Shown: positions 1-46,120, counted from the stretch's first letter. The stretch is DNA of 46,266 nt from an uncultured Candidatus Moduliflexus sp. (GCA_964498135.1 CAZCGG010000008.1:1-46266), one strand, 5' to 3'. The notes: generated from the sequence alone by a model not told the origin. Translations and numbers: made by a program.

Positions 1-404
1 CTGAAAAAGAGGTCGCGCTCCAAATTCAGCCCTCTGCGTTTACGGTGAACATCATTCCCAGCGCGGGCTGCGCGGTCATCGCCGGGGACGGCGGCGTGGA
101 TGCGGTCGAACCGGACGGCATCGCCTGTTCCGGCGGCATGGCGGCGGATAATCCGCTCTGCACCGAGCAATTCAAGAACAGCGCGATTGCCAGCTTGAAA
201 GTTGTGCCAGAGCCGGGCTATGCGTTCACGGGCTGGACGGTGAATGGGGCGGAAATCTCGGTGGCGTCTTCGGATACGTTGTTCTTGACCACGATGCCAA
301 CTCTTGCGGGATTGGCGGATATCCTCCCCCCCGGAACAACTGAGGCGAATGTAGAGGGGGAATGCAAACATCAGATCGATATTTTGATGATGGCCCCCAT
401 GTAA
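1..404 (+). CDS. 3' end of a larger surface/secreted repeat protein (InlB-type B-repeat module); partial, continues upstream of the window
   Basis: Frame 3 is open from base 3 (EKEVALQIQPSAFTVNIIPSAGC...), so the listed 45..404 ORF is only the tail of a gene entering from upstream. It contains VVPEPGYAFTGWTVNG, the GYxFxGW signature of Listeria-Bacteroides / InlB B-repeat modules. It stops at TAA 402-404, just after the GC-rich to AT-rich switch. Confidence 0.6.
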   Translation, partial: EKEVALQIQPSAFTVNIIPSAGCAVIAGDGGVDAVEPDGIACSGGMAADNPLCTEQFKNSAIASLKVVPEPGYAFTGWTVNGAEISVASSDTLFLTTMPTLAGLADILPPGTTEANVEGECKHQIDILMMAPM

Positions 405-1093
405 GTTTAACAGGGAGAACGATGACAATTATCAACACCTTATTAAGCAGGCAACAAACCCTGAAAAAACCTGTTCACGTGACTTTTTTCGTGGAACATT
501 CTCGAATAACATCAGGATTGGGAAAAAAGATTCTCAAAGAATATATGTGTCAGTATCACCATGAGGTTGGACTACATGGGGCACATGAGACGGCCCACCA
601 CACGAAGCACCAGGATACAGAGGATCTTCAGACACGATTGACAACGATGAAAGCAGTTATTGCTTCAGAAGAGGCTGGTGGAATTACTCCAGCCCATGTG
701 AGACCGCCAGGTGGATGGGGGGGATGGACGGTGGGAACGATATATGCGAAGGATCAAGTTGTGCAAATTTATCAAAATGTATCTCTTGTAAGATATACCG
801 GTGAAGGTACAGATGGGGTTAATAGTTGGGGAAAACTCTATCCATCTCGCTGTGACCGGGATACCTCAGAATGTTGGCCAACTTCTGAAGATAGAATAGA
901 TTTTATAAATACTATAAAAACCAAAATAGACAATGCCAAAACTGCTACAACACCACCAAAACTTGTAATCCTCATGCATGATCTTCGTCTTCCTGATGTC
1001 AAAGATATAGGGAATATTATTGACGAAATTGAAACGTATGCGGAAACTCAGTCGGTAAGAATCAATTATAAAACTCTTGGGGAATTATATTAG
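362..1093 (+). CDS. NodB-family polysaccharide/peptidoglycan deacetylase domain protein; probably the C-terminal module of the upstream gene, separated from it by a 1-nt frame offset
   Basis: All NodB motifs are readable: YFDDGPH (TFDDG motif), HHEVGLHGAHETAHH (His-His metal motif), VRPPGGWGG (RPPxG motif), LVILMHDL (LxH motif). The ATG at 362 lies only 1 nt after a GAGGGGG run, which is poor SD spacing. The ORF overlaps the end of the previous ORF in another frame. AT-rich composition. Confidence 0.75.
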   Translation: MQTSDRYFDDGPHVSLTGRTMTIINTLLSRQQTLKKPVHVTFFVEHSRITSGLGKKILKEYMCQYHHEVGLHGAHETAHHTKHQDTEDLQTRLTTMKAVIASEEAGGITPAHVRPPGGWGGWTVGTIYAKDQVVQIYQNVSLVRYTGEGTDGVNSWGKLYPSRCDRDTSECWPTSEDRIDFINTIKTKIDNAKTATTPPKLVILMHDLRLPDVKDIGNIIDEIETYAETQSVRINYKTLGELY

Positions 1094-1105
1094 GAGGTCA
1101 ATCTA

Positions 1106-1966
1106 ATGAACACATCCGTAGAGTACTGTGGAATTTTCTTATGTATTTTGATACTGCTTGTTCCCTCAACTAGTATGCCAAGTGATTTAGCAATATCTCA
1201 GACATCAATGCCTGAAGAGGTTTCCCAGATTTTGAAGATGGCAAGGGAAACAGAAAATGAACAGGTATTGTCAACAGCCATGCATAAACTTGGTGAAATT
1301 GGTGATGAACAAGCAGCAATGGCGTTCATGGAGATTTTCAAGTCCAAGGTAGTTTCACTACGATTACGTCAGACTCAGTTTATTGCGATAGCATCACAAT
1401 TTCAATTAGAAAATAGCCGCGTGAAAGAAGAGTTGGTGTCGCTTTTACAAGAAATGCTCAAAAAAAATCCGGAACGATTGGATATAATTTTAATCACAGG
1501 CGCATTGGCAAAATATGGTGACAATCATTCAATGCAATATTTGCTGAATGAATACCAAAAATCGCAAACGATCTCTTCACAACAAGAAGAACATTTTCGA
1601 GATTATATTTTTGAAGAGTTATGTCAACTCAAGCAGATAGAAGCATCGCAATTTGTTCTGCAAGAAGTTCAAAAACGTCATGATGTTATGCTAACATTAT
1701 CTGCTATTAACCTGATGTCAGAAGCCAATAATCCCTATGCGCTGGAGATTGCCAGGAAATGTATTCACCTTGAAAGTGAGGAGTTTGATCTTATTGAAGC
1801 GCAACATTACTTGCGAGCGATTATTAAATTTGGAAATCTCAGCGATAAAGAGTATCTTGACCACCTCAGTAAAAAATCAGAAAAACTCTTTGGAATTGAG
1901 ACTGCAAAAGAGTTACATCCACTTCTTATGCAAGCATACGAAAGTATAAAAAATCGCAACCAATAG
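1106..1966 (+). CDS. Exported/membrane-anchored alpha-helical protein with PBS-lyase-type HEAT-like repeats; candidate immunity partner of the deacetylase module
   Basis: Strong SD (AGGAGG, then 7 nt, then ATG). Hydrophobic N-terminus (YCGIFLCILILLVPSTS). Repeated HEAT-like motifs (KLGEIGDEQAAMAF, ALAKYGDNHSMQYL). AT-rich and 12 nt downstream of the deacetylase stop. The ORF itself is solid; the immunity role is inference. Confidence 0.55.
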   Translation: MNTSVEYCGIFLCILILLVPSTSMPSDLAISQTSMPEEVSQILKMARETENEQVLSTAMHKLGEIGDEQAAMAFMEIFKSKVVSLRLRQTQFIAIASQFQLENSRVKEELVSLLQEMLKKNPERLDIILITGALAKYGDNHSMQYLLNEYQKSQTISSQQEEHFRDYIFEELCQLKQIEASQFVLQEVQKRHDVMLTLSAINLMSEANNPYALEIARKCIHLESEEFDLIEAQHYLRAIIKFGNLSDKEYLDHLSKKSEKLFGIETAKELHPLLMQAYESIKNRNQ

Positions 1967-2097
1967 TAGTTTCTCTATCAGCCATCCATCCATTTGGATA
2001 TTATTTCTTCTATATACGTGCCCAACCTCTTTCGCTGTCTTTTTTTCGGGACGCGCCGCCGCGTTTACCGTGAATATTCTGCCCTACTGGCTGCACC

Positions 2098-3483
2098 GTG
2101 ACCGCCGGGGATGGCGGCGTGGATGCCGTGGAAGCGGACGGCATCGCCTGCGCCGGCGGCATGGCGGCGGATAATCCGCTGTGTACGGAACAGTTCAAGA
2201 ACAGCGACGTTGCCGCGCTGAAGGTGGTGACGGATCCGGGCTATGAGTTTGCCTATTGGGAGATGAACGGGGGGATCATTCAGCAGGCAAGCGCCGAGCC
2301 GCTCTTTCTTTCGACGATGCCGCTCTTCGCTGGCCTTGCAGTCGTGCCAACGGACACGAAGACAGCGACGATACGCCCCTGTTGTCCATCGTTGTCCTTG
2401 CAATCGGTCACGTTTGCGGGGATGTCGGCGGAACTCCTTCAGGATGACGGGACGCCGTATCGCGCCACGCCGGACGCGCCGCACTGGCAGAAGACGGATG
2501 ATCCGTCCTATCGGCCGGCGCCGGTCGTGTTTGCGGCGGGCAGCCCGATCACCGTGACGGCGACATTCGCCGTCGAGCCAGCAGATTTTGCTGGGGACCT
2601 GTATATCACAGGCACGGGAACAGATGCTCAACATCCCTCGCATCTTGTGGCCTTGAATCCTCACAAGGCCACGCTGACGAACGGGATCGCGTCCGTGACC
2701 ATTTCCGCGGCAACGAAAAAACAAGTTGACATTTTTGACAAGATGCGCATTGACTGGGCATACGGGTTTGCGAAAAACGGCCAATTCAAACAGGTAACTG
2801 GTGTCAGCGAGCATCAGCTCTACATCACGCTTGCTGCCCCGTTGACGTCGCCAGTCTATCATACGCTGGCGCATCTTGGGTGTAAGAATGCCGCTGGCGA
2901 GATTGACGCATTGCCTTCGACCCTGCCGTCAGGCGAGGAGAAACGAGGCACCATTGCGGCGATTTGGGAAGAATTTCTGGATTTGAGGGTGGCGCGTGTC
3001 AGCACCAATACGCCCATGCAATATTGGGGGGCGTACTCCTCTCAAAACCTTAACCCGACTCCCCCTGATTTTTTTACCACAGCAGGCCTGCTTAAAAACG
3101 GAGATGGGCGTTGTTACGCCTGGGCCAATCTCTTTGTCGATATGCTGAACGCGCAGGGAATTGCGCAGGCTTCGGTAGAAATCATTCGAACCAAAGATTT
3201 CGTCTTTAACCAAAAATACTATCTGGGCGATAAATTTTGGGTCAACACCTTTCTTTCAGCTCAAGGCCCTAACAACGAACCTTATAACGGTCCATTCAAT
3301 CATGCGGTGGTTATGTTTGAAAATAGCTCGAACATATACGATCCCTCATACGGAAGATCGTATGCGAATCTGATGGCATGGGAGGATTTGACCGTGCTTG
3401 ATCTTGGGTATATTGATCAAAAGACAAATATCGGCTTTACAAATGCAAATACGATAGGAGATGAACAAACAGAAATACAATAA
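2098..3483 (+). CDS. Orphan cassette: B-repeat homology block + Ig-like middle + C-terminal transglutaminase/papain-fold Cys-His-Asp module
   Basis: The N-terminal ~130 aa are near-identical to the tail of the first gene (AGDGGVDAVEADGIACAGGMAADNPLCTEQFKNS...GYEFAYWEMNG). The C-terminus carries an ordered triad context: GDGRCYAWANLFVDMLNAQGI (Cys), FNHAVVMF (His), IYDPSYG (Asp). The ORF opens only at a GTG inside the homology block, with no signal peptide or SD of its own. Confidence 0.65.
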   Translation: MTAGDGGVDAVEADGIACAGGMAADNPLCTEQFKNSDVAALKVVTDPGYEFAYWEMNGGIIQQASAEPLFLSTMPLFAGLAVVPTDTKTATIRPCCPSLSLQSVTFAGMSAELLQDDGTPYRATPDAPHWQKTDDPSYRPAPVVFAAGSPITVTATFAVEPADFAGDLYITGTGTDAQHPSHLVALNPHKATLTNGIASVTISAATKKQVDIFDKMRIDWAYGFAKNGQFKQVTGVSEHQLYITLAAPLTSPVYHTLAHLGCKNAAGEIDALPSTLPSGEEKRGTIAAIWEEFLDLRVARVSTNTPMQYWGAYSSQNLNPTPPDFFTTAGLLKNGDGRCYAWANLFVDMLNAQGIAQASVEIIRTKDFVFNQKYYLGDKFWVNTFLSAQGPNNEPYNGPFNHAVVMFENSSNIYDPSYGRSYANLMAWEDLTVLDLGYIDQKTNIGFTNANTIGDEQTEIQ

Positions 3484-3528
3484 GAATGTGTTTCTGAACA
3501 CCTCTCTTATGCCTGAAAGGAGGATGCA

Positions 3529-4287
3529 ATGAAATCTTTGAGTCTTGTGATGTGTGCTGCTATGGTGTTAATAGGGGCTCTCGAGGGGGACGCCTGTAGG
3601 AAAGAGGAGACTAAAACGATTTTTTCAGAATCATTTCCGGAGTTATCTCTGGTAATGAGGTTGGCCGAACAGTGTGTTGAAAAGCCAGCACCCAAGAGGC
3701 TCGAGGGAAAGGGGGATGATGGTTGGGTGTCAGCGCTGTTGAAGAGAAACGCCCTGTCCGCCCAATTAGAAGAGGCGGACATCCCCATATGGACGACTTG
3801 GGCAATGGTGGATTTTCAGAGTTTTTTTTACAAACCGATGGATTCTATCTATATCTTAACGTTGATACGTGAGGGGAATGTAGAGACGGTTTGGACCAGA
3901 AGAATATTCGGTACTGATGCTCTCCCCAGTACCTGGCCGGTTCCTTTCTATGTCGGCGATGTCGTGCAGCAACAAAACACCGTGTGGGTCTTTTTTTGGA
4001 AGGAGCCGTATTATTATTTAGACAGACAAGAAAAACAGCATGGGGAATGGAACAAGACGGCCTCTCTGCGACTTGAGCGTCCATATGCGAATGAAACACA
4101 TGCGACAATTCTCGTTGATGGGGAACACGTTGGTGTCACGTTGATTCTGGAGAACGCCACCTATGAACCTCATTCCGCAACGCTCGCTGCTGGAGAACAG
4201 CCTGGCGTCAAATTGACATTGCAGGACGGAACGGAAGAATATTGGCGGCTTGAAGGCGAGCACTTGGTGAAAGAAGCGCAGAAGTAA
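3529..4287 (+). CDS. Secreted protein of unknown family; candidate immunity partner of the Cys-His-Asp module
   Basis: SD AGGAGG upstream of the ATG. N-terminal signal-like segment MKSLSLVMCAAMVLIGALEGDAC. Lies 45 nt downstream of the preceding gene and is followed by a clean terminator. I recognise no motifs. Confidence 0.55.
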   Translation: MKSLSLVMCAAMVLIGALEGDACRKEETKTIFSESFPELSLVMRLAEQCVEKPAPKRLEGKGDDGWVSALLKRNALSAQLEEADIPIWTTWAMVDFQSFFYKPMDSIYILTLIREGNVETVWTRRIFGTDALPSTWPVPFYVGDVVQQQNTVWVFFWKEPYYYLDRQEKQHGEWNKTASLRLERPYANETHATILVDGEHVGVTLILENATYEPHSATLAAGEQPGVKLTLQDGTEEYWRLEGEHLVKEAQK

Positions 4288-4313
4288 CCTAAAAACATCC
4301 ACATTTCATTGCA

Positions 4314-4338
4314 GGCGGGCCATTGGCCCGCCTTTTTT
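4314..4338 (+). terminator. Rho-independent terminator closing cassette 2
   Basis: GGCGGGCC / att / GGCCCGCC stem followed by a T6 run. Confidence 0.7.
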
Positions 4339-4363
4339 CGTGCCTGTTTTTTGACCTCATAAA

Positions 4364-4773
4364 GAACATCGTCCCCAGCGCGGGCTGCGCGGTCATCGCC
4401 GGGGATGTCGGCGTGGATGCCGTGGAAGCGGACGGCATTGCCTGCGCCGGCGGCATGGCGGCGGATAATCCGCTCTGCACCGAGCAATTCAAGAACAGCG
4501 ACGTTGCCGCGCTGAAAGTCGTGCCGGAGGCGGGCTATGAGTTTGTCTATTGGGAGATGAACGGGGGGATCATTCAGCAGGCGAGCGCCGAGCCGCTCTT
4601 TCTTTCAACCATGCCGCTCTTCGCGGGCCTTGTCGTCGTGCCGACCTCACGGGTCGCAACGATGACAGCGCGCTGCCTCTCCGTCACGCTGCAATCCGTC
4701 GCGTTTGCCGGCATGCCCGCCGACGTCGTGAAGGATGACGGGACGCCGTATCGCGCCATGCCGGACGCGCCGC
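4364..4773 (+). pseudogene. Third, truncated copy of the B-repeat homology block (orphan stub with no downstream toxin or partner module)
   Basis: About 410 nt track copy 2 (2098-2483) through ...DDGTPYRAMPDAP. The reading frame then runs into non-homologous low-complexity sequence. There is no credible start: the listed ORF 4323..5189 begins inside the preceding terminator. Confidence 0.6.
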
Positions 4774-5169
4774 TCTTAGGTGTCTCAATGCCAAAGGCAA
4801 AACCATGGAGGCCGAATGCGTCACGTCCTCATGTCTTTCCCTGTCCTGCGCCATCTTATTCCATTTTCCCGAAACAATTCTCTTGCCAATTTTTTTGCGC
4901 TGAAATAAGAGAACGTTGTCATTGTTGCGTTGTTGGAGAGTGGTCTTATGAACGAACTCGCATCTTCATGGTTCGACTCCACGCCATGACCGGTCATCCT
5001 AAGCCAAGTCGAGAGATGCGTTGGCCAATCAGTTTGATTTCTGCCACTCTCCCGTTTCGGAGAGCATTTTCCCCACATTTCAACCAATGCAGGTGTTCTG
5101 AGGTGAGTTGCGCCACCCTCGTTTCTTTTCGAAACGCAACATCATCTATGGAATTTCCTCGGTCGCCTT

Positions 5170-6612
5170 ATGAAAAACAGGGTTCTTGACGTTCTCAGGT
5201 GGCTCTTGTCGAGCATGATGCTGTTCTGCGCGATGCCCGCTTCTGCCGCCGACATGGCCGTCGAATGGTGGCAAAACGCTGCTGCGCCGTACAAAGGAAA
5301 CGTTATCCATGTTGTCAGCGAGGAAAGTCCGCCCTCAGTTTACATGCGCGACAAGTTAGCCCCGGCATTCGAAGCCTTGACCGGCATCAACGTCGCGTTC
5401 GAGACCGTCTCGTGGGCGGATGCTTTCGAACGAGGGATTCAAGATATGGCGACCGGATCGGGGCTGCTTGATGCGGTCTATGTCGAACAGGACATCGTGT
5501 ATGCCTATCTCGCGCAAAAATATCTTGCCAATATCAGCCAGCTTTTCCGCGATCACCCGGAATTGGCCTCGCCGGATTTTCATTTCGAAGATTTTACCTC
5601 GTTCCTGAATTATTACAAAGACCCAACCTCCGGCGACGTGTTCGGCATGCCGTTTGAGGCGTTCACGAAATTTTACGTGTATCGCAAGGATTTGTTTGCG
5701 GATGCCGATATTCAAAAGGCGTTTCAAGCCGAATACGGCGAGCCGCTCGCGCCCGCCGAAACGATTGACCAATACCGAAAGATCGCCGCATTTTTCACGA
5801 AATGGGGCAAAGATCATTCCCTCGAATTATGGGGCGCGACGGTGCAAGGAAAGCTTGAGCATGGCTCGGTTTGGAGTGAATTCACGGAGACGATCCTGCC
5901 GATTTTCGGCATCTACCAGTGGGGGCTCAATATGGAAACGAAAGGCGCGTCGGTCGCGAAGGGGGGCAGCCTGAACAGCGACACCGCCAAAGCCGCGCTG
6001 CAATTTTGGCTTGACATGCTGCAATATGCGCCGCCGGAAGCGCTCATGAGCACGTGGGATGAAGTCGCGTTCAGCCTTGCCGCCGGCCGCGCAGCGCAAG
6101 GGTTCATTTACGGCGATCAAATCCCAAAAGTAATGGATCCGGCCACATCGAAAGTAATCGGCAAGTTAGGCTATGCTCTGCCGCCGATGATGCCGGGCGT
6201 ATTAGACGACGCCAATGCCGGGAAAGGCTATATCGGTTATTATGACGGCGGCGCGTTAAGCATTCCGCATTGTTCGAAAAATAAAGAGGCCGCGCTCCTG
6301 TTTTTGCAATATATCGGGCAGCCGTCAGTTCAAGCGGATTGGGCGGTGGAAACCGGGCGCGTCGTGCATCAAGCCACCTTCGACGATCCGCAGATACTCT
6401 CCAAAGATCAGGAAGTGGGCGGATATTTCGCGCTCATGCGTGACAATGGGCATCTGTTTGCCGGAGCGCCGCCATTTCCCGAGCATGCGGAACTTCGGGA
6501 AACGGCTGTTCCCTTTATTTGGCAGGCATTGGCTGGACAGTTAAGCGCCGAACAAGCCCTTGATCAAGCGGCGGAAGCAGTTGATCAATTCTTTGCTAAA
6601 GAGGGCGAATAA
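5170..6612 (+). CDS. ABC transporter substrate-binding protein (family 1, sugar type)
   Basis: Signal peptide (LLSSMMLFCAMPASAAD). Overall family-1 SBP pattern and length (480 aa). No cognate permease or ATPase genes are adjacent. Confidence 0.8.
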   Translation: MKNRVLDVLRWLLSSMMLFCAMPASAADMAVEWWQNAAAPYKGNVIHVVSEESPPSVYMRDKLAPAFEALTGINVAFETVSWADAFERGIQDMATGSGLLDAVYVEQDIVYAYLAQKYLANISQLFRDHPELASPDFHFEDFTSFLNYYKDPTSGDVFGMPFEAFTKFYVYRKDLFADADIQKAFQAEYGEPLAPAETIDQYRKIAAFFTKWGKDHSLELWGATVQGKLEHGSVWSEFTETILPIFGIYQWGLNMETKGASVAKGGSLNSDTAKAALQFWLDMLQYAPPEALMSTWDEVAFSLAAGRAAQGFIYGDQIPKVMDPATSKVIGKLGYALPPMMPGVLDDANAGKGYIGYYDGGALSIPHCSKNKEAALLFLQYIGQPSVQADWAVETGRVVHQATFDDPQILSKDQEVGGYFALMRDNGHLFAGAPPFPEHAELRETAVPFIWQALAGQLSAEQALDQAAEAVDQFFAKEGE

Positions 6613-6759: not shown

Positions 6760-9183
6760 ATGAACACATCTTCCCAACAATCGTGGAAACAGCGCATCCA
6801 TTCACTCGGATTCCGACTCCCCTTAATCATCGTGTCAGTTGTCTTGTTGACTGCCCTGGCGATTAGCGGCTCGTCTTCATGGGTCTCCTTGCGTGACGGT
6901 CAGCGTCAGGTGATGTATCGCATGGAATCCGTCATCGCCTTCAAAGAAACCCAATTGATTGATTGGTGTCATGGGCTTCAGGATGGATTGCAGGCCATTT
7001 TGGATGATCCGAAAAACGCCTGGCATTTCACGGTCGTGCTCCAACCTACAGACTCTATCAAATTGTTTCGCAAAACCTCTTATAATTACTTCCAACTGCT
7101 CTTTCAAAAACTCATCACGCAAACCCATTGGTTTGAAGAATTATTGTTGCTCGATGCGACGGGAACGGTCGTGCTTTCGACAATTCCGACCAATGAAGGC
7201 CATAGTTATGCGAGCATGGCCTTCGCGGAGAAGGCGATTTCTTCGCCGATCCGCATGTCCCCCGATTCGCCCTTCTCTGTGCTGTTTTTCTCGCCAGTGG
7301 CGGATCCAAGTGGAAAATTCGTGGGCAGCATCATCGGACGGGCGGGACTGGAGGTCATGAACGGAATCATGGAAACGCAATTAGGATTGGACGAAACCGG
7401 CGAGACGTTTCTCATCGAGACCAATGCCATGATTGTCACCGCGACGCGCACAGCCTTGAATCAAGCCATTCCCTATCACAACGATGGCGCGCGTCAGGCG
7501 ATGGCGCAACGCGCCACCGCGTTCGGGCGGTATGAAAATTATGCCGGGGACGCGGTCGTCGGAATGTATCGCTGGATTCCAGAGCTTCAGGTCATTATCG
7601 CCGCCGAGCAACTGGAAACAAAAGCATTTCAGGTGATGTATTCCGCGTTGCGCATCTCCTTGAGCATTGCGGGGATTGCCGTCCTGATTGCGATGCTCAT
7701 CGGTTTCAAGTTGACGCGCAAAATTACGCTTCCCTTGAACAGCCTGGCGCAGGCAGCGCGGCAAATCGCCGACGGCGAGGTGGTTCTCGGCCTGCCATAT
7801 GTGACCTCTCAGGATGAAATCGGCGTGTTTACGCAGGCATTCGAAACCATGCTCCATCGCCTGAACTCAATTTTGCGCGAATTGGATGAATTGATTCGCT
7901 CAATCCAAGAGGGGAAATTGAGCATTCGAGGCCATGCTGACGACTTTACCGGACGGTGGCGCGAGTTAGTCGTCGGCGTCAATCTGGTGATTGATGCGTT
8001 CGTCACGCGAATTGTGACGACAAGCTCGGCGCTGGATCGCCTGTCAAGAGGAGACGTTCCCGAGAAAGTCACGGCGGAGTATCATGGCGACTTCAACACC
8101 ATCAAAAATCATTTGAATCTGTTGATTGATGTCACACAGGAAACCACCCATATCGCCGAGGAAATCGCACACGGCAACTTGATGATGCACGCCCGCGAAC
8201 GCTCAGAACAAGATCGCATGATGCAGGCATTGAACCTGATGATTACGCGCCTGAATGACTTTCTGAATGAAATGGATGGTCTCGTGCATACAGTGAAGCA
8301 AGGCAAATTAGAGAGTCGGGGACGCACGGAAGGGTTTGAGGGCGGCTGGCGGGATTTGGTCTCAGGCGTCAACGATGTTTTGAATGCGTTTGCGGAGATG
8401 ACCATGCTCAGTGAACGACTCAAAGAAGAAAATCTGCGCATGAGCGCGGAAATCGCCGTGACGCGGCGGCTGCAAATGATGATTCTCCCTCCGCCAGAAG
8501 AATTACAGCAGATTGAGGAGTTGGAGATCGTCGGCTTTATGCAATCCGCCGATGAGGTCGGCGGTGATTATTATGATGTGCTGAAGGGACAGGGCGGCCT
8601 CATCAATATCGGCATCGGCGATGTGACCGGACATGGCCTGGAAAGCGGCGTGTTGATGTTGATGACCCAGACCGCGATCCGCACACTGATTGAGCATGGC
8701 GAAACCGATCCAGTGGCGCTTCTTGAGACCTTGAACCGCACGATTTACAAAAACATCCAGCGCATGAAAGTAGATCGAGCGTTGACACTTGCCTTTATTC
8801 ATTATCAGGGCGGGGTGGTGAAAATTGTCGGGCAGCATGAAGAGATGCTTATTGTCCGACAGGGCGGGCAGGTGGAGCGCGTGGATACCATCAACTTAGG
8901 CTTTCCGCTCGGCTTGGTAGAACACATTTCCCACTTGGTTTCGGAATATATGGTCACGTTGCATCCCGGCGAGAGCGTCGTTCTTTATACCGACGGGATC
9001 ACCGAAGCAGAAAACACCGAAAACGTCTTGTATGGCCTTGATCGGCTCTGTCAGGTTCTCAGCCGAAATTGGAACGGGTCGGCGGAAGCCATTAAACAAG
9101 CGATAGTGAACGATGTCATCGGATTCATTGGGCAGCAGGTCGTGTATGACGATTTAACGCTGGTGGTGTTGAAACAGAAATAA
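6760..9183 (+). CDS. Membrane sensor phosphatase: periplasmic Cache-like domain, TM, tandem HAMP-type modules, C-terminal PP2C/SpoIIE phosphatase
   Basis: Two TM segments flank a ~300-aa extracytoplasmic region. A coiled module is repeated (ELIRSIQEGKLSIRGHADDFTGRWRELVVGVNLVIDAF / GLVHTVKQGKLESRGRTEGFEGGWRDLVSGVNDVLNAF). SpoIIE signatures are present (GGDYYDV, IGDVTGHGLESG, LYTDGITEA). The start was moved to 6760 because of the upstream hairpin. Confidence 0.8.
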   Translation: MNTSSQQSWKQRIHSLGFRLPLIIVSVVLLTALAISGSSSWVSLRDGQRQVMYRMESVIAFKETQLIDWCHGLQDGLQAILDDPKNAWHFTVVLQPTDSIKLFRKTSYNYFQLLFQKLITQTHWFEELLLLDATGTVVLSTIPTNEGHSYASMAFAEKAISSPIRMSPDSPFSVLFFSPVADPSGKFVGSIIGRAGLEVMNGIMETQLGLDETGETFLIETNAMIVTATRTALNQAIPYHNDGARQAMAQRATAFGRYENYAGDAVVGMYRWIPELQVIIAAEQLETKAFQVMYSALRISLSIAGIAVLIAMLIGFKLTRKITLPLNSLAQAARQIADGEVVLGLPYVTSQDEIGVFTQAFETMLHRLNSILRELDELIRSIQEGKLSIRGHADDFTGRWRELVVGVNLVIDAFVTRIVTTSSALDRLSRGDVPEKVTAEYHGDFNTIKNHLNLLIDVTQETTHIAEEIAHGNLMMHARERSEQDRMMQALNLMITRLNDFLNEMDGLVHTVKQGKLESRGRTEGFEGGWRDLVSGVNDVLNAFAEMTMLSERLKEENLRMSAEIAVTRRLQMMILPPPEELQQIEELEIVGFMQSADEVGGDYYDVLKGQGGLINIGIGDVTGHGLESGVLMLMTQTAIRTLIEHGETDPVALLETLNRTIYKNIQRMKVDRALTLAFIHYQGGVVKIVGQHEEMLIVRQGGQVERVDTINLGFPLGLVEHISHLVSEYMVTLHPGESVVLYTDGITEAENTENVLYGLDRLCQVLSRNWNGSAEAIKQAIVNDVIGFIGQQVVYDDLTLVVLKQK

Positions 9184-14167: not shown

Positions 14168-15754
14168 ATGATGGAAGAAAAGGATTTGTTAACAATCAGT
14201 GAGGCAAGCAAATGGGCGACTGACTATATCAAAAAGAAAGTAACAACCTCAAATATTTCTTACCTTATTCAATATGGACGAGTGACTAAGTATGGCGATA
14301 ACGGAAATGCGAAAGTTTCCAAACAAGAATTAATGACTTATTACCATACATTTATAGGTAAACGTGAAATCAATTGGAAAGCCGAATTAGGTGAAGATAT
14401 TAATTGGGCATTATCTTTTGATTCTTTAAAAGAAGCCGATACGACAAAACATGTGCATAGACTTCATCCGTATAAAGGAAAATTTATTCCTCAACTTGTT
14501 CAATATTTTATAGATGACCATACCGACGAATTTAAAAAAGACATGTATTTCAAGACTGGAGATATACTGTTAGACCCATTCTGCGGAAGCGGGACGACCT
14601 TAGTTCAAGCAAATGAACAGGGAATGCATGCTCTTGGAATTGATATATCTGAGTTTAATGCTCTTATTAGTAATATTAAAATAGAGAAGCATCATCTTCT
14701 TGATATTCAAAAGGAAATTGTCGAGATTACATCTCACCTGAAACGCTTCATTAGTCAATCGAATATTGTCGAATTTGAAGCACATTTAACTGAAGAATTG
14801 AATAAATTCAATAGTTTATATTTTCCATCGCCTGAATTCAAATTCAAGGTCAGACGAGGACAAATTGATCAAAATCGCTATGGAAAGGAATACGAAGAAA
14901 AATTTCTTTTGCGCTATTTCCAGATAGTGAATCAATACAATATTATATTACGTCAAGACAAATTAGAAACATTTTTAGATAAATGGTATTTATCCAATGT
15001 CAGGAAAGAAATAGATTTTGTTCTTGAATGTATAAAAAAGATAGGCGCTCCAGAAATTAAACGAGTGATTCAAATTATTTTAAGCCGTACTATTCGATCT
15101 TGCCGAGCGACAACACACGCGGATTTAGCTACATTACTTGAACCGATAACAACAACATATTATTGCGCTAAACATGGCAAAATTTGCAGGCCATTATTTT
15201 CAATTCTTAGCTGGTGGGAACGATATAGTCAGGATACCCTGCAACGATTAGCCAATTTCGATAAATTAAGGACAAACACATTTCAATATTGCATAACAGG
15301 AGATTCTCGTAAAATTGATATTATCTCCATATTGGAGCAAGAATTTCCTGCCCTTGCTCAACTTGCGCAATCTCAAAAAATTCAAGGTATTTTTTCAAGC
15401 CCTCCGTATGTCGGATTGATTGATTATCATGAGCAGCATGCGTATGCGTATGAATTGTTTGGTTTTCAAAGACATGATGAATTTGAGATCGGGTCCATGC
15501 TGAAAGGACAAGGCAAAGATGCGCGAGAAGCGTATGCTCAAGGGATTGCGGATGTATTGAATAATTGCAAACAATTCTTAGCTCCAAACTATCATGTGTT
15601 TTTAGTGGCAAATGATAAATATAATCTCTATCCGACGATTGCCGAAAAAGCCGAAATGCAAATTGTGAATCAGTATAAGCGTCCGGTATTGAATCGCACC
15701 GAAAAAGATAAAGCGGCATATTCGGAAACGATTTTTCATTTAAACGCCAAATAA
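14168..15754 (+). CDS. DNA methyltransferase (N6-adenine or N4-cytosine type) with N-terminal HTH
   Basis: AdoMet motif LDPFCGSGTTLVQA near residue 135. Catalytic IFSSPPYVGL near residue 400, with a ~260-aa putative target-recognition region between them. N-terminal LLTISEASKWA...ISYLIQYGRV looks like a MerR/excisionase-type HTH. A sample line counted by hand is about 28% G+C. Confidence 0.8.
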   Translation: MMEEKDLLTISEASKWATDYIKKKVTTSNISYLIQYGRVTKYGDNGNAKVSKQELMTYYHTFIGKREINWKAELGEDINWALSFDSLKEADTTKHVHRLHPYKGKFIPQLVQYFIDDHTDEFKKDMYFKTGDILLDPFCGSGTTLVQANEQGMHALGIDISEFNALISNIKIEKHHLLDIQKEIVEITSHLKRFISQSNIVEFEAHLTEELNKFNSLYFPSPEFKFKVRRGQIDQNRYGKEYEEKFLLRYFQIVNQYNIILRQDKLETFLDKWYLSNVRKEIDFVLECIKKIGAPEIKRVIQIILSRTIRSCRATTHADLATLLEPITTTYYCAKHGKICRPLFSILSWWERYSQDTLQRLANFDKLRTNTFQYCITGDSRKIDIISILEQEFPALAQLAQSQKIQGIFSSPPYVGLIDYHEQHAYAYELFGFQRHDEFEIGSMLKGQGKDAREAYAQGIADVLNNCKQFLAPNYHVFLVANDKYNLYPTIAEKAEMQIVNQYKRPVLNRTEKDKAAYSETIFHLNAK

Positions 15755-15767
15755 AAAGGATGGAATC

Positions 15768-16547
15768 ATGGCATTATCCAGTACGCAAATTTTCTCTATA
15801 GAAAGAACAATTAAAGAAAGTTTAAGAAATAAATTTCAGCGTTATAAGCCAGAATCTCAAAACATGCCATTTCATTATCGGCTATTAGGGAAAGATCGAA
15901 TGGCTCTTTATTCGTTTCTCCAATCGTTAAATACCACGTTTGGAACATCTATTTTTGAGCCTGTCGCAGTAACATTAGCTCAAACACATTTCATCAATGC
16001 CAAAGCACAATATGTTGCTGGAAATGAAATTAGCGAACAGGCTCAAAAAGTTATTCAGGAAATTATCAATCAACTCACAACAGGCCAAGATAGCCATAAA
16101 AATGAAGAAATTGAACGTATTAGAGCAGTCTGTCAACAAGGTCGAATGAATAGATTGAAAACGGTAAAAATAGATTTATTGGTTGAAGATTCTGCGGGTG
16201 CTTTATTTTTATTCGATTTAAAAACTGCTAAACCCAATATGAGTGATTTTAAGATTTTAAAACGAAATTTATTAGAATGGTGCGCGATTATGTTAGCGAA
16301 AAATCCTACTATAGACATTCATTCTCTTATTGCAATTCCTTATAATCCTTATGAGCCAAAACCTTATGAACGTTGGACATTAAAGGGAATGCTTGATTTA
16401 AACGAAGAGTTGAAAGTTGCTCAAGAATTTTGGAATTTTCTTGGCGGAGATGGCGCGTATGAAGAGTTGCTTAATTGTTTTGAAAGAGTTGGCATTGAAT
16501 TACGCACAGAAATTGACCGATATTTTGAAAAATTTAAAACGGCGTAA
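15768..16547 (+). CDS. Type II restriction endonuclease, TdeIII-like (family assignment from memory)
   Basis: Sits 13 nt downstream of the methyltransferase, on the same strand and in the same AT-rich composition. PFHYRLLG...TTFGTSIFE and D-x-K-type FLFDLKTAKPN agree with what I recall of the RE_TdeIII family. SD AAGGA. Confidence 0.6.
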   Translation: MALSSTQIFSIERTIKESLRNKFQRYKPESQNMPFHYRLLGKDRMALYSFLQSLNTTFGTSIFEPVAVTLAQTHFINAKAQYVAGNEISEQAQKVIQEIINQLTTGQDSHKNEEIERIRAVCQQGRMNRLKTVKIDLLVEDSAGALFLFDLKTAKPNMSDFKILKRNLLEWCAIMLAKNPTIDIHSLIAIPYNPYEPKPYERWTLKGMLDLNEELKVAQEFWNFLGGDGAYEELLNCFERVGIELRTEIDRYFEKFKTA

Positions 16548-38869: not shown

Positions 38870-40459
38870 CTACATTCCCCAAACCGTCACGGTTGTTTCG
38901 TGATAATTTTCCTGACGGCAAAAGATTTTCTCCGCCCAACTGACATGTTTCCGCCGGTCGAAAATGACAAGATGCCCTTCGTTTGCGCCGCAGCGATCCA
39001 TATATTGCCACGTCTGCGCCACGCCACTGCGAATCGTTTCGTCTAAATCGCCGTACCGGATTTTCAACTCGATGACGACATGCTGAACGCCGCTACGATG
39101 CGGCCAAATCGCCAATAAATCCGTGCGTTTCATGCCCAAGCCGTACTCGCGCTCAATGCGCCCGCCGCCGTTGATAATCCGCGAGAGAAACGCCTGCATC
39201 AGCAATTGCGGCCCGGCTTCTTTGTATTGAAACCGCTCGCCCCAGCTTTCCGAATGCTTGCGGAAAAATTCTTGAAACGCCGCCATCAATTTCGGCATAT
39301 CGAGTTGGCCGTCATTCGGGCGAATGTACCATTGCGGCTGCTCGCTGATCGTCAATTGCGTCACATACGTCAACTCGCGGGGAATCACTTCCTGATAGAG
39401 CCGGTTGGCGATGCGCACCTGCCCTTCGGTTTTGATTAAGCCCAAATCGCGGACATAGCTGAGATCGTCGGGCGGATAATCTTCCGGCGCGTCAATGCCG
39501 CTCAAAATCGGCTCGATGACGCGGCGGACGCGCTCTTCCTGCAATTTATCCGCTAACTGGTCAAGATGAGTTTCGCGGCGGGCGATAATCCGCTCTTTCG
39601 CCGCGTGAACCATCTCGGCGGTAATCGAGTTCGCGCGGTTGCGCCCTTCCGGCATTTCGAAACAGACTTCATATCCGAGCGCGTTTACCAGCCAGGGCTG
39701 TCCTTCGCTGAACGCCCACACGCAATCAAGGGCTTTCGAATCAAACGTCTGCCCGGTTTCGGCGGTATGACAGCGATATAATTCCGTGATTTCTTCCCGG
39801 ACGAAATCGCCTAATCGCAGCGATTTCGCTTTGATGTTGAACGCGCTGCCGCCCGTAATCACCGTTTTTTCTTGGCTGGAATGAATCCGATAATCCCGCA
39901 CGTCGCGCACGCCGCAGAGAATCACGCTTTGCGGAAACAGCGCGGGGCGTCCGGCATAGCCGCTGCGCAATTGGCGAAGCAGCGAAATCAGCGTGTCGCC
40001 GATGAGCGCGTCCACTTCGTCAATCAACAACACAAACGGCTTCGGCGACGCCTTTGCCCATTCGCTCAACGTTTTTTGAAAGGCGTTGAATTCCCCGTCA
40101 TGTTCAAGAATCTCCTTCCAATGTTCGCGGACGAAGTGATCATGCAGATAGTTTTCGGCTTTATCCGCCAATTCCGACAACACCGAGCGGATGCCGGCCT
40201 TGACGTTTTCGCGGGCAGCCTGCGCGTTTTCGATGTTCATGTACAAACAGGCGTAAGTTCCCTGCTGATTCAAATAGTCCATCAACGCCAGCAGGCAGGA
40301 CGTTTTGCCGGTTTGACGCGGCGCGTGCAGAACAAAATATTTTTTCTGCGCGATCAAATCCAGCATTTCCGAGAGGTTGATGCGCTGTAATGGCGGCAAA
40401 CAGTAATGATCCTTGCAGTTCACCGGCCCTGCGGTATTAAAAAAGCGTTCGTGCGTCAT
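38870..40459 (-). CDS. ORC/AAA-ATPase-like domain fused to a C-terminal PD-(D/E)XK nuclease-like domain (paralog 1)
   Basis: FFNTAGPVNCKDHYCLPPL lead-in, Walker A HAPRQTGKTS, Walker B FVLLIDEVDAL, and C-terminal KRTDLLAIW...VVIELKIRYG (D...ExK). The start was set at MTHERFF (40459) because the listed extension is repeat-derived. Confidence 0.75.
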   Translation of the reverse strand: MTHERFFNTAGPVNCKDHYCLPPLQRINLSEMLDLIAQKKYFVLHAPRQTGKTSCLLALMDYLNQQGTYACLYMNIENAQAARENVKAGIRSVLSELADKAENYLHDHFVREHWKEILEHDGEFNAFQKTLSEWAKASPKPFVLLIDEVDALIGDTLISLLRQLRSGYAGRPALFPQSVILCGVRDVRDYRIHSSQEKTVITGGSAFNIKAKSLRLGDFVREEITELYRCHTAETGQTFDSKALDCVWAFSEGQPWLVNALGYEVCFEMPEGRNRANSITAEMVHAAKERIIARRETHLDQLADKLQEERVRRVIEPILSGIDAPEDYPPDDLSYVRDLGLIKTEGQVRIANRLYQEVIPRELTYVTQLTISEQPQWYIRPNDGQLDMPKLMAAFQEFFRKHSESWGERFQYKEAGPQLLMQAFLSRIINGGGRIEREYGLGMKRTDLLAIWPHRSGVQHVVIELKIRYGDLDETIRSGVAQTWQYMDRCGANEGHLVIFDRRKHVSWAEKIFCRQENYHETTVTVWGM

Positions 40460-40468
40460 AAGTGGTTT

Positions 40469-40528
40469 CCGTTCGCCCTGAGCGTGTCGAAGGGCAGTTT
40501 TGTGGTTCGACACGCTCACCACGAACGG
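40469..40528. repeat. Core-only copy of the CCGTTCGCCCTGAGC.TGTCGAAGGG hairpin repeat
   Basis: CCGTTCGCCCTGAGCGTGTCGAAGGGC, then 9 nt, then GTTCGACACGCTCACCACGAACGG. Its right arm supplies the last codons and the stop of the STAND gene. Confidence 0.65.
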
Positions 40529-43497: not shown

Positions 43498-43507
43498 AAT
43501 TTTTACA

Positions 43508-43567
43508 CCGCAGAGACGCGGAGAACGCAGAAAAATGTTTTTCTCCGCGACCTCCGCGTCTCGGCGG
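43508..43567. repeat. Palindromic intergenic repeat (GAGACGCGGAG type)
   Basis: CCGCAGAGACGCGGAG ... CTCCGCGTCTCGGCGG with an inner stem GCGGAGAA / TTCTCCGC. Confidence 0.55.
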
Positions 43568-43656
43568 TTCAATTACAGATGACAAAAACCATCGCACCTA
43601 CCTGAATGAACAACGCATTGACAGCGAGGGAAAAATTTTTCAAGGGAAATCGCATT

Positions 43657-44478
43657 TCAGCGATATTTTTCAGCGAGTTGCCGGTACGCCGCCGCGTCTG
43701 CCGGTTTATCGCGTTTGGCGCAGCCTTGCGCCATGATGTCGCATTTGCGCCGCAGTTCATCCGCCGCCTGCTGACGCTGTTCTGCCGTCAAGCCGCCCGC
43801 TTGCAGGAGCTTTTCGAGCGACTGAATCCGAAAGCGATCCAGCCCCCAATGCGTCCGCGAGAGTTGATCATCATGCCCGCCGCGCTTGATAATCAGGGGC
43901 GTTTCGATGAAATGCACCGGGTGGGTTTTGGTGATGCGCAGCCACAAATCATAATCTTCGCAGGCGGGCAGGGCTTCATCGAAATAGCCGACTTCATCGA
44001 ATATCGCGCGGCGAATCAGCGCGGACGACGGGCTGATGACGCAGAACGGCAGGCAATGCGGGAAAATATAGCCGCCGTGCTTCTGGTGCTTTTTCATCTG
44101 ATTGACGCGGACGCCGCGCCGAATCCAGATTTCTTCGGTATGGCAGAGCGGAATGTGCGGCTGCGCCTCCATGACGGCGATTTGCGCGGCAAGCTTTTTC
44201 GGCAGCCAGAGATCATCGGAATCGAGCAGCGCGATATAGCGGCCTTGCGCGGCGCGGATGCCCGCGTTCCGCGCGCTGCTGACGCCGCAATTTGCCTGAA
44301 AAATCGGGCGGAGGCGCGCGCCGTAGCCGTCCAGCACATCGCGGGTGCGATCCGTCGAGCCATCGTCAATCACGAGAAGCTCAACATCACGAAAGGTTTG
44401 CGCGAGGACGGACTCAATCGCCTCTTTGAGAAAATCGGCGCGGTTATAGGTCGGAATGATCACGCTGACGGTCGGCAA
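43657..44478 (-). CDS. Glycosyltransferase family 2
   Basis: VSVIIPTYNRADFL, LLVIDDGSTD, LDSDDLW, CEDYDLWLR. TTG start with SD AGGGGTG at 8 nt. Only 5 nt downstream of the preceding ATPase-nuclease gene. Confidence 0.85.
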   Translation of the reverse strand: MPTVSVIIPTYNRADFLKEAIESVLAQTFRDVELLVIDDGSTDRTRDVLDGYGARLRPIFQANCGVSSARNAGIRAAQGRYIALLDSDDLWLPKKLAAQIAVMEAQPHIPLCHTEEIWIRRGVRVNQMKKHQKHGGYIFPHCLPFCVISPSSALIRRAIFDEVGYFDEALPACEDYDLWLRITKTHPVHFIETPLIIKRGGHDDQLSRTHWGLDRFRIQSLEKLLQAGGLTAEQRQQAADELRRKCDIMAQGCAKRDKPADAAAYRQLAEKYR

Positions 44479-44483
44479 TTTGA

Positions 44484-46073
44484 TTACACCCCTGTTGCCA
44501 CAAAGACCGGCATGACGGTCACGCCCGTCTCATCGTCGAGAACCGGCGTCTCGAATTTATGACGATGTTCGTCGCTGATCGCCTCAATGAAAAACAGCAG
44601 CGTGATCTCTTGCAAGCGCAGTTGTTTGCCATACTGCGCGGCCTGTTTCACGGCATTCCGATATTCCGCCACGTCCGCGAACGTTTTCAGTTCAATGCCG
44701 TACATCTGCCCGCGATAGGTGATAATCAGGTCTATTTTGCCGTTGCCCGTCGGAAATTCCGGCCAGACGTTCGCGCCTTTGCCGCGCAAAAATTGATGTA
44801 AGTATAGGTAAAGATTGAAGTGATACACCGCCTCATAAATCCGCAAATCGGCGCGGCGCGGCGCATCCTGAAACAGCCAGCGGCTATTCTGCGTCAAATA
44901 TGCCTGATACCGCGCTAATAACGGCAGCAGACATAATGCATTTTCCGTAAAAATATCGGAGAGATCATCGAACGGATCGCTCATCCGTCCGATGTCATGA
45001 AACAATTCATCTGCAAAATAATTGAACAGCCGTTTTTGCACGAACGGGCAGAAAAATTTGACGTAACTCTGGGTCGGACTGACTTTATCGAGATCGATCA
45101 CACCGTTGAAATAAAGATAGTTTGTCGGCGGAAAATCGTATGCAAACGACGTTTTCCGATCAGTATCGAACAGACGCAGCACGAAATCTCGATACGGTCG
45201 CTGCTTGGCCTTGCTCAAAATATTCAAAATTGTGTTGTTGGGAAGCACGTTAATGGCTTCGGCATACACTTCATCGAATTTCGCCCGTGTAATCGGTTCG
45301 GGAAAGTTCTGGTTATACGTTTCAGTCAACAATTCGCCGAGCCAACCAATCAACCCCGGATGCCCATTCGTTTCGACAAACAGCCGCATAATCACGTCCG
45401 GCGCGATGGTTTGACCGCTTTCGCGCTGATACCAGTCGAACATGCCCTTCACTTCGTCAAAGGTAAGATTGGGAATGCGGACGCTGCGCTGAACGTTGAA
45501 CGGCGAGCCGGTCGTATTTTCGATGCCCAGCACGCTGCGGATGCCGATCAACGCGAGGCCGTGCAGCAGATACGTTTTTTCGGAGGATGGTTTCGCCTCG
45601 CTTTTTCGAGAAAGATAGAGATTCCGGCATTCGCTCGCAAATTTGCTGATGAATGATTCCTCTAAGGCGTCAAATTCATCAATAATCAAAATAAGCGGTT
45701 TTGACAAATACGTTCGAGTGAACAATTTGGGGAAATCATCCCACGTAATTCGTTCAGGGAAATTTCGATCCGAAAAATAGCGCAGTTCCCGCAGAAGAAT
45801 GTAAAGAATGGTTTCATGATTTTGCTCATATTTTGCGCTTTCGGCAGAAATCATGATGACATCGAATTCCGCGCTCTGCCGCAGACGTTTCACGACCTCC
45901 AGCATTGTCCACGTCTTTCCGGTTTGGCGCGGCGCCCAAATTGTCATGTAATGCCCGCCCTCATCAACCGGATCGCCGAGCAACTGCCGCATGGCGAAAT
46001 CAACCAGCGCCTCGCGCGGCGCGTAATATTCGGAGGCAGTCGAAACCGGGCCATACGAAGAAAATTTGCGCAT
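44484..46073 (-). CDS. ORC/AAA-ATPase-like domain fused to a C-terminal PD-(D/E)XK nuclease-like domain (paralog 2)
   Basis: Walker A WAPRQTGKTW, Walker B LILIIDEFDAL, and C-terminal GNGKIDLIITYRGQMYGIELKTF (D...ExK). The start was set at MRKFSSYGPV (46073). Confidence 0.75.
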   Translation of the reverse strand: MRKFSSYGPVSTASEYYAPREALVDFAMRQLLGDPVDEGGHYMTIWAPRQTGKTWTMLEVVKRLRQSAEFDVIMISAESAKYEQNHETILYILLRELRYFSDRNFPERITWDDFPKLFTRTYLSKPLILIIDEFDALEESFISKFASECRNLYLSRKSEAKPSSEKTYLLHGLALIGIRSVLGIENTTGSPFNVQRSVRIPNLTFDEVKGMFDWYQRESGQTIAPDVIMRLFVETNGHPGLIGWLGELLTETYNQNFPEPITRAKFDEVYAEAINVLPNNTILNILSKAKQRPYRDFVLRLFDTDRKTSFAYDFPPTNYLYFNGVIDLDKVSPTQSYVKFFCPFVQKRLFNYFADELFHDIGRMSDPFDDLSDIFTENALCLLPLLARYQAYLTQNSRWLFQDAPRRADLRIYEAVYHFNLYLYLHQFLRGKGANVWPEFPTGNGKIDLIITYRGQMYGIELKTFADVAEYRNAVKQAAQYGKQLRLQEITLLFFIEAISDEHRHKFETPVLDDETGVTVMPVFVATGV

Positions 46074-46120
46074 ATTGAATCGCCGCCGCCAAACACGCCG
46101 AACGTGTCTGGCGCGGCGCA

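Follow-up and report, generated by a model that had tools for sequence, protein, structure and literature searches.

Predicted murein-directed tips behind a common B-repeat trunk: a probable, partly decayed polymorphic toxin island in a Moduliflexus-like bacterium

Near the start of a 46,266-nt stretch of DNA from an uncultured Candidatus Moduliflexus sp. (GCA_964498135.1, CAZCGG010000008.1:1-46266; hereafter the window), one GC-rich block occurs three times and is followed each time by different sequence, which raises the question of what the block belongs to and why its copies lead into unrelated genes. An original prediction, made from the sequence alone, read this layout as a polymorphic toxin locus in which a conserved trunk is combined with variable C-terminal tips, small partner genes and displaced orphan cassettes. 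We conclude that the sequence from 1 to 4776 is probably the right end of a chromosomal island of polymorphic toxin and immunity genes, with a Sec-exported trunk and tips predicted to be peptidoglycan-directed. The start of the window would then be the decayed end of a strain-variable island, in which putative exported wall-attacking enzymes are exchanged behind one common stalk, each with a probable antidote gene.

We took the definitional features of polymorphic toxin systems from Zhang et al. 2012 and Jamet & Nassif 2015 (PMC4436062) and used five related loci as the comparison set. All of the features that can be read from sequence were found, in agreement with the prediction, namely one trunk with different tips, tips on foreign trunks, co-varying partners, orphans and recombination. 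The alignments show a modular architecture with orphan cassettes, recombination in the repeated block, linkage of tip and partner, and variability between strains.

Three copies of a B-repeat block and the cassettes behind them

A repeat search of the window placed a 263-nt block at 66-328, 2089-2351 and 4383-4645, the first and third copies being 70% and 91% identical to the second, respectively, and an additional block of 87 nt is common to copies 2 and 3 only (2399-2485 and 4690-4776, 84% identity). In a multiple alignment, the left edge of the homology lies at the FTVNI codons (about 36, 2061 and 4364), and the full GC-rich blocks cover about 36-340, 2061-2485 and 4364-4776. The similarity among the three copies is far beyond chance, and both analyses confirmed their predicted number. 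Copy 1 identifies the block as a divergent InlB B-repeat, matching Flg_new_2 (PF18998) with 26.3 bits against a cut-off of 23.6 (Pfam gathering thresholds were used throughout), and copies 2 and 3, which score below that cut-off (17.8 and 18.7 bits), are tied to the same identification by the 70-88% amino-acid identity among the three copies.

Copy 1 (about 36-340) lies in the 3′ end of a resident gene on the plus strand (1-404), which we call the head gene and which ends at a premature stop (402-404). On a metagenomic scaffold, L001, which reaches 8,895 nt farther upstream and departs from the window sequence at 5 of 11,966 positions, the complete resident gene (L001 8535-9299) encodes a protein of 254 amino acids (aa). 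Its Sec-type signal peptide (MNNCLTRWVHAGIAGISLMGGVCGLAADA) is followed by an Ig-like domain and then by the B-repeat (Flg_new_2, 24-26 bits), and in this protein the scans run found no PAAR, VENN, LXG, TPS, RHS, DUF1020 or type IX secretion system (T9SS) domain. The prediction had looked upstream for an N-terminus with a signal peptide or one of several trafficking markers, and of these only the signal peptide was found; the gene is also not the ordinary multi-domain enzyme or adhesin that would have spoken against a toxin.

The DNA alignment with the related strain L007 showed that 10 nt (TTGCCTTCAC) are missing on the plus strand at 382/383, a deletion that detaches the trunk from the deacetylase tip and removes 'AFT' of the AFTFDDGP motif. 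In L007, trunk and deacetylase are fused in frame (P0017, junction CKHQIDIAFTFDDGPHV). A frameshift in the run of five G near 352 was considered as the cause of the split and rejected in favour of the deletion. Because the split form is present not only in the window but also in the metagenome contigs L001, L002 and L017, we regard it as real, and because of the deletion the putative resident toxin is uncoupled from its export trunk in the window strain. The claim that copy 1 continues a gene from upstream into a NodB deacetylase therefore stands in that the gene enters from upstream and the deacetylase adjoins it, but the two are not in frame.

The detached tip (362-1093, plus strand; class NodB-1), which has no signal peptide, is a NodB-type polysaccharide/peptidoglycan deacetylase. 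It matches Polysacc_deac_1 (PF01522) with 24.0 bits (cut-off 23.1) and contains the stretches FDDGP, HGAHE, RPPGG and LMHDL, which we take to be the NodB catalytic motifs. Gene callers put its start at 422. The homologues P0019-P0021 have PF01522, and one of them is named peptidoglycan/xylan/chitin deacetylase by JGI; a PDB sequence search with the tip returned a single match, at E = 0.12. The next open reading frame (ORF; 1106-1966, plus strand) encodes a candidate immunity protein of 286 aa with a hydrophobic, signal-peptide-like N-terminus, and in L007 the deacetylase tip has this partner behind it too. Export had been predicted for it together with HEAT-like repeats; the N-terminus fits the former, and the HEAT match stays below its cut-off (23.8 vs 27.7 bits), accompanied by weak HEAT_2 and NblB-like matches. 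An NCBIfam scan was uninformative, and an Rfam scan of the window gave no match.

Copy 2, with the linker that it has in common with copy 3 (2061-2485, plus strand), forms the 5′ end of orphan cassette 2. Its first ~35 nt (2064-2097) are degraded and include a 2-nt gap, as had been noticed just past FTVNI, and, again as anticipated, neither copy 2 nor copy 3 has a signal peptide; the PKD part of the trunk is missing from both as well. The orphan ORF (2098-3483, plus strand; 461 aa) encodes the B-repeat, Ig-like domains and a transglutaminase/papain-like Cys-His-Asp tip, with the putative catalytic codons at 3112-3114 (C), 3301-3303 (H) and 3340-3342 (D). The Transglut_core match is weak (16.9 bits, cut-off 23), and the Cys, His and Asp are invariant in all 8 homologues of the tip (27-76% identity), which fits the predicted Cys-His-Asp module behind an Ig-like region. 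A PDB sequence search with the tip found no match. The structure model of the full-length homologue P0002 has a mean pLDDT of 54, with only the PKD domain confident, and its fold search against the PDB is uninformative on the tip because it gave generic Ig/FN3 arrays only.

The small secreted protein and the terminator expected behind this tip are both present. A 252-aa candidate immunity protein (3529-4287, plus strand) has a signal-peptide-like N-terminus, matched no Pfam family and is 99% identical in L009, where it stands behind the same tip; a hairpin resembling an intrinsic terminator (4313-4333, plus strand; 9 bp, 8 of them G-C, then a T run) closes the cassette. Copy 3 with its linker (4364-4776, plus strand) is 95.7% identical to the head gene of L006 and is best read, from this alignment, as a stump, truncated at both ends, of a transglutaminase toxin gene of the P0002 type. 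Past 4776 there is no coding similarity to any collected sequence, in line with the prediction that copy 3 leads into nothing coding, and a 288-aa ORF at 4323-5189 was rejected as a gene because it is a mechanical read-through. The non-coding stretch from the remnant to a sugar-binding-protein gene (4777-5169) is 98-100% identical across strains A, B and C and is therefore taken to be the old, fixed right border of the island.

Base composition separates the block from what follows it. The B-repeat blocks have a GC content of 0.62-0.65 and a GC content at third codon positions (GC3) of 0.74-0.77, compared with a GC content of 0.525 for the whole window and a GC3 of 0.62-0.63 for two neighbouring housekeeping genes. 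Values are lower for the deacetylase (GC 0.41, GC3 ~0.32), the HEAT-like partner (0.37 and ~0.33), the catalytic part of the transglutaminase-like tip (GC 0.45) and the 252-aa partner (0.49 and 0.52), so that the count (0.37-0.49 vs 0.62-0.65) agrees with an earlier judgement by eye that variable parts and partners are more AT-rich than the block. The cassettes are atypical in both GC and GC3, which supports their reading as foreign. The GC3 of the block itself lies well above that of the housekeeping neighbours, and that of the cassettes far below it; GC-biased gene conversion among the block copies is one possibility for the former.

None of the three copies in the window encodes an intact exportable toxin, and both partner genes are intact. 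The system thus appears to be decaying in the window strain, with the head cut from its deacetylase, cassette 2 a silent orphan and copy 3 a stump.

Trunk, tips and partners across related loci

A full-length relative starts with a Sec signal peptide, continues through a PKD-like Ig domain, the B-repeat and a short Cys-containing linker, and ends in a variable tip. One common trunk (signal peptide, PKD and B-repeat) bears at least seven unrelated tip classes, comprising three classes of NodB deacetylase, the Cys-His-Asp transglutaminase-like module, two lytic-transglycosylase-like classes recognized by E-S...G-(F/L)-(L/S/M)-Q motifs read in the sequences, HExxH metallopeptidases and several tips of unknown type. 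Some of the lytic-transglycosylase-like tips also have a weak PG_binding_1 match (16.2 bits vs cut-off 23). Many database proteins begin within the B-repeat (e.g. MVTAGDGGVD...), opening at or just past FTVNI, and correspond to orphans. The family is small: against 1.84 billion representative proteins, a profile search found no more than 26 hits with E below 1e-30.

Tip and partner classes were defined by all-against-all BLASTP of the tips and downstream genes across loci. Six tip classes match six partner classes, with the partner directly downstream of the tip. The transglutaminase-like tip goes with partners of 252 and 232 aa, and in L006, whose tip is 72% identical to that of the window, the partner is only 40% identical; NodB-1 goes with the 286-aa HEAT-like protein; NodB-2 with partners of 340, 323 and 328 aa; the lytic-transglycosylase-like class A with 240 and 229 aa and class B with 294 and 132 aa; and the HExxH peptidase with 294, 311 and 312 aa. 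By a heuristic, a hydrophobic N-terminus is present in all partners and all heads and in none of the orphans. Sorting of the heads as lipoproteins, as in SitA, was considered and rejected, their N-termini lacking a canonical lipobox, and the T9SS Por_Secre_tail is absent from all head and orphan proteins scanned.

Tips also occur away from this trunk, in other organisms. The transglutaminase tip stands on unrelated trunks in P0010, P0015 and P0016 and is found behind Calx-beta and PKD N-termini, and NodB-1 stands behind a different N-terminus in P0019-P0022. L021 has a NodB-1 tip on an unrelated trunk, and behind it comes a 288-aa protein with a hydrophobic N-terminus that is homologous (E 3.5e-11) to the HEAT-like partner of the window; by this homology the linkage of tip and partner persists on a foreign trunk. 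The neighbourhood of P0015 holds SprB and T9SS-tail genes. P0015 itself, a distant homologue (L011 4671-7976; also in L012), has a hydrophobic N-terminus, and the nearby SprB has a weak Por_Secre_tail match. Three small genes (137, 155 and 137 aa) precede it, and the 172-aa protein after it has a hydrophobic N-terminus and no BLASTP similarity to the collected partners, including the 252-aa one.

In the relatives, an array comprises a single complete head gene and as many as seven orphans, which begin within the B-repeat. In L008/L009, the accessory gene that precedes every head gene (see below) and a 607-aa head gene are followed by seven further B-repeat-led blocks, most of which have a small gene of their own behind them. 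A signal peptide and PKD domain are found in one of the eight blocks of L009 and in one of the three of L001, which includes the window. Full-length genes with their own signal in place of startless copies, an arrangement that would have counted against displaced orphans, were seen in L016 and not in L009. A tiny B-repeat stump in L013 (13843-14085; an 80-aa ORF with 'DLRCAEQFKNS'), downstream of head, partner and FG-GAP genes, suggests a decayed orphan there too.

Comparison of strains records how the cassettes move. Positions 2089-4519 of the window (orphan tip, partner and the start of copy 3) are 98.4% identical at the DNA level to L009 1087-3517, where the same tip belongs to the complete 607-aa head gene. 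Between L009 and the window strain, conservation (97%) covers the accessory gene and extends 24 nt into the head gene; from there to the B-repeat the sequence is unrelated, which is the pattern expected from replacement through two flanking regions of homology. In L007 (strain C), the intact deacetylase cassette is present as an orphan, the transglutaminase cassette is missing, and the block is of copy-2 type at diagnostic sites up to ~2226 and mostly of copy-3 type from ~2340; this switch indicates a crossover inside the B-repeat. The head gene P0002 of L006 (strain B) is likewise a mosaic of copy-2 and copy-3 types. On these alignments, recombination at the B-repeat block is shown to exchange the tip that follows the exported trunk or to remove cassettes. 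In strains A, B and C alike the island comes before SBP, HAMP/SpoIIE and RhaA genes, from which the fixed site is read, the contigs of strain D ending short of this border. The expectation that relatives would carry alternative tips was thus borne out, cassette content differing between strains at one chromosomal site.

Upstream genes, a proposed mechanism and its rivals

Because the B-repeat was not known as a handle in toxin loci, an undescribed delivery context had been suggested, and two observations favour it: Pfam scans found no known trafficking marker, and a conserved accessory gene stands directly before every head gene. The exported accessory protein has a B-repeat, with or without fn3/He_PIG domains, and ends in a conserved domain of ~147 aa (TVAFLEGVNL...TFAYADVTP) that belongs to no Pfam family. 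Its model (mean pLDDT 73) is a string of Ig-like domains, and a fold search with it turned up strings of Ig, cadherin and adhesin type and nothing else. Conservation in the accessory protein P0165 peaks at residues 338-384 (L001 ~8074-8214; TFTLMTVAFLEGVNLRDGATEQD...LPN), where the model drops to ~40 pLDDT with well-modelled Ig-like domains on either side; this stretch may fold only on partner binding. In the two relatives with complete, intact sequence before the accessory gene (L013-L015 and L016), a small PEP-CTERM gene precedes it. L016 also has a Peptidase_S74 fibre-type protein of 487 aa (6965-8428), of which the window strain keeps only a remnant before the accessory gene (L001 6638-7045). 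In L009 (19283-19654), a piece of B-repeat runs straight into the final ~60 residues of a Peptidase_S74 (tail-fibre chaperone) domain, the same end that survives as the remnant in the window strain, and the start of another accessory gene comes next; this looks like a recombination scar linking successive units. No genes of type V, VI or VII secretion systems (T5SS, T6SS and T7SS) were found among the larger ORFs of the window or in the gene tables for 13 kb upstream.

Several further elements lie upstream. In a second unit (L017 1-1429, ~11-13 kb before window position 1), a paralogue of the accessory protein, 490 aa long and ending in a C-terminal domain of that type, is followed by a 222-aa head with a signal peptide, an Ig domain, a divergent B-repeat and no tip. 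There are also more enzyme-partner pairs, with an M15 peptidase, a DUF6973 protein and a lytic-transglycosylase-like tip homologous to the one fused to a B-repeat in P0040. A different short trunk, with a signal peptide followed by TPPEAEPITITVEIVAAD..., occurs at L001 73-1029, L001 6313-6573 and L017 1467-2234, as one complete gene with a Cys-rich tip, one with a DUF6973 tip (36 bits) and one 86-aa stump; this N-terminus may define a second polymorphic trunk family in the same island.

We propose that the unit consists of the accessory gene, the head gene (Sec signal, PKD-like Ig, B-repeat and tip) and a tip-specific exported partner. The head protein would be exported by Sec. The families that the tips match or resemble (deacetylase, Cys-His-Asp peptidase/amidase-like, lytic-transglycosylase-like, Zn and M15 peptidases) are active on peptidoglycan, so the tips would be expected to act on murein, and a tip could attack peptidoglycan either inside the periplasm or where cell walls are exposed. 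Each exported partner would inhibit its cognate tip in the periplasm of the producer, so that the producer's own wall would be safe during passage of the toxin, and might also guard against the toxin of sister cells. Orphans would serve as silent reserves, switched on when recombination in the B-repeat sets them behind the exported trunk, and the accessory genes would aid display or release of the toxin. A more specific idea, which we put forward tentatively and consider rather unlikely, is that the PEP-CTERM, S74 self-cleaving fibre and accessory proteins form an unknown surface-fibre device that docks Sec-exported toxins via matching B-repeats and presents their tips to neighbours. Such a device would amount to contact-dependent antagonism in diderm filamentous bacteria, independent of type V/VI/VII/IX secretion and of outer-membrane exchange.

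The host is, by its gene content, a diderm bacterium related to Candidatus Moduliflexus. The diderm markers are LpxB in the window and LptF/G in the related locus L014, and the named genome with the toxin family among the matches listed is the metagenome-assembled genome (MAG) L010, labelled uncultured Candidatus Moduliflexus sp. A scan of genome contigs for the family gave at least one confirmed locus (L010), and the taxonomic spread is under-sampled. The Moduliflexus candidate phylum is made up of Gram-negative anaerobes that form filaments, glide and bring about bulking in anaerobic wastewater reactors (PMC4312070).

Several points weigh against a toxin island. A Sec-exported murein enzyme must still leave a diderm producer and reach a target wall, and no route for this is evident. 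Both head genes of the window strain are trunk-only, so the system may be inactive here, and L016 has several complete units and not orphans. Signal peptides were called by a hydrophobicity heuristic only, Pfam support for the tip assignments is weak (16.9-36 bits), and the transglutaminase tip was modelled poorly (pLDDT below 50). The organism is uncultured and the readings of toxicity, immunity and secretion are sequence-based, and the taxon assignment comes from one named MAG (L010), which has the family in common and not the same locus.

PEP-CTERM genes are associated with exopolysaccharide and floc biology, and their presence fits an alternative in which the proteins are the cell's own wall- or sheath-remodelling enzymes (autolysins or exopolysaccharide deacetylases for filament growth, septation or gliding) on a common Ig/B-repeat stalk, with dedicated periplasmic inhibitors and with the orphans as pseudogenes. 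Every identifiable tip matches or resembles a murein- or polysaccharide-active family, no dedicated secretion machine lies nearby, the heads of the window strain are broken seemingly without consequence, and the host is a filamentous gliding bacterium (PMC4312070), all of which would suit such enzymes. Housekeeping enzymes, however, would hardly be of different kinds at one locus in strains that are nearly identical, and neither strict co-variation of tip and partner with joint moves to unrelated trunks, nor a foreign base composition (GC3 0.32 vs 0.63), nor arrays of seven intact, startless cassettes would be expected of them, and we judge this explanation to be distinctly improbable.

Two others appear less probable still. 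The Peptidase_S74 gene or remnant that adjoins the accessory gene (L016 6965-8428; L001 6638-7045) and an M15 endolysin-like ORF upstream could point to a prophage or tailocin remnant, with the B-repeat proteins as receptor-binding or tail-fibre proteins that have exchangeable depolymerase or lysin tips and with the neighbours as fibre chaperones; a conserved stalk, variable tip and small partner also fit phage fibre loci. The 10 kb upstream, however, contain no capsid, terminase, tail-tube, baseplate or integrase genes, and the four cassette proteins of the window and the 254-aa head have no PHROG match, the only matches being the M15 ORF, the S74 remnant and, weakly, the accessory protein (E 2.5e-5 to a major-tail-protein family, in its fn3-like part). 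Virion proteins and fibre chaperones normally lack signal peptides, whereas the heads and partners have signal-peptide-like N-termini, and in three strains the island occupies one fixed chromosomal position flanked by housekeeping genes. One expression site with promoterless partial copies, a common block and crossovers within it, next to an adhesin-like accessory protein, would also suit silent-cassette surface variation of the pilE/pilS kind, in which an Ig/B-repeat protein changes its exposed C-terminus by gene conversion to evade phage, predators or kin and enzymatic activity is secondary. That idea is hard to reconcile with cassettes that encode entire enzymes, unrelated in fold and with their catalytic residues conserved, and that each bring an exported partner gene, needless for antigenic variation, and we give it as little weight as a phage origin. 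A polymorphic toxin island therefore remains our preferred reading.

Elsewhere in the window, an N6_N4_Mtase methylase and a TdeIII-type restriction endonuclease (14168-16547) stand inside a ZnuA/ABC-3 zinc-uptake operon and look like an inserted restriction-modification module. On the minus strand at 38870-46121, AAA_35/STAND-like (550 aa), MalT-like TPR (1018 aa) and AAA_35 (545 aa) genes stand in a row.

Comparison with known polymorphic toxin systems

By its architecture, the locus would belong in the Sec-dependent ('T2SS', MafB-like) class of polymorphic toxins of Zhang et al. 2012. The nearest example there is the MafA-MafB-MafI system of Neisseria (PMC4436062, PMC4287609, PMC3482391), which the locus resembles in its signal peptide, lineage-restricted conserved N-terminus and variable tip, and it resembles the MafB islands in having an adhesin-like gene directly upstream, an immunity gene directly downstream and orphan C-terminal and immunity modules after these, at fixed chromosomal sites with strain-variable content; the outer-membrane route is unexplained in both. 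The trunk differs, being a PKD-like Ig domain with a divergent B-repeat, and Pfam scans of the heads gave no DUF1020 match. The accessory protein, set apart from MafA by its domains and not by direct comparison, is an Ig/fn3/He_PIG (Flg_new_2) string with a new C-terminal domain. MafB tips in PMC4436062 include a predicted RNase (toxin 64) and MafB19, whereas the tips here are predicted to be peptidoglycan-directed and their partners exported, and the hosts are pathogenic Neisseria in the one case and a Moduliflexus-like filamentous anaerobe in the other.

The contact-dependent inhibition (CDI) system CdiB-CdiA-CdiI and Rhs/WapA are alike in combining a full-length gene with displaced orphans, a common recombination block and tip-specific immunity, and an export-related gene can stand upstream. 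They differ in that no TPS, filamentous-haemagglutinin repeats, VENN, (Q/E)LYN, CdiB, YD/RHS repeats or PAAR were found in our locus, where an alignment read by eye also showed no VENN motif at the trunk-tip junctions. The proteins are, moreover, only 480-900 aa long, or 254-900 aa with the 254-aa head counted, and the junction is a folded B-repeat domain, not a short pre-toxin motif.

The Tae/Tai and Tge/Tgi pairs of T6SS combine murein-degrading effectors with periplasmic immunity proteins that have signal peptides. The pairing of a murein-directed effector with periplasmic immunity is alike here, but no PAAR, VgrG, Hcp or other T6SS genes were found among the larger ORFs of the window or the Pfam calls for 13 kb upstream, and the putative effectors have their own Sec signal peptides and a common modular trunk. 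SitA toxins of myxobacteria act in the cytoplasm. They are lipoproteins delivered by outer-membrane exchange (PMC5562445, PMC8546572) and are alike in being Sec-exported, modular polymorphic toxins of a gliding social diderm with an N-terminal escort region and a downstream immunity gene; they differ from the heads described here, in which inspection of the sequences showed A-x-A type cleavage sites and no canonical lipobox, and no TraA/B was seen.

In the catalogue text of Zhang et al. 2012 (PMC3482391) there is no mention of PKD, deacetylase or lytic transglycosylase. We found no literature that pairs polymorphic toxins with the B-repeat or the Listeria-Bacteroides repeat, and for PEP-CTERM only an unrelated SitA paper. 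The locus is not categorically new, and the system in the window is partly decayed; it adds a new trunk (PKD-like plus divergent B-repeat) and a new accessory module to the Sec-dependent polymorphic toxins, a class whose export route is unexplained even for MafB, and every assignable tip class matches or resembles a peptidoglycan-active enzyme family. Kin discrimination or antagonism in bulking filaments could affect floc and filament ecology. The related strains record displacement, deletion and mosaics of cassettes at nucleotide resolution, with a folded domain as the apparent handle for recombination.

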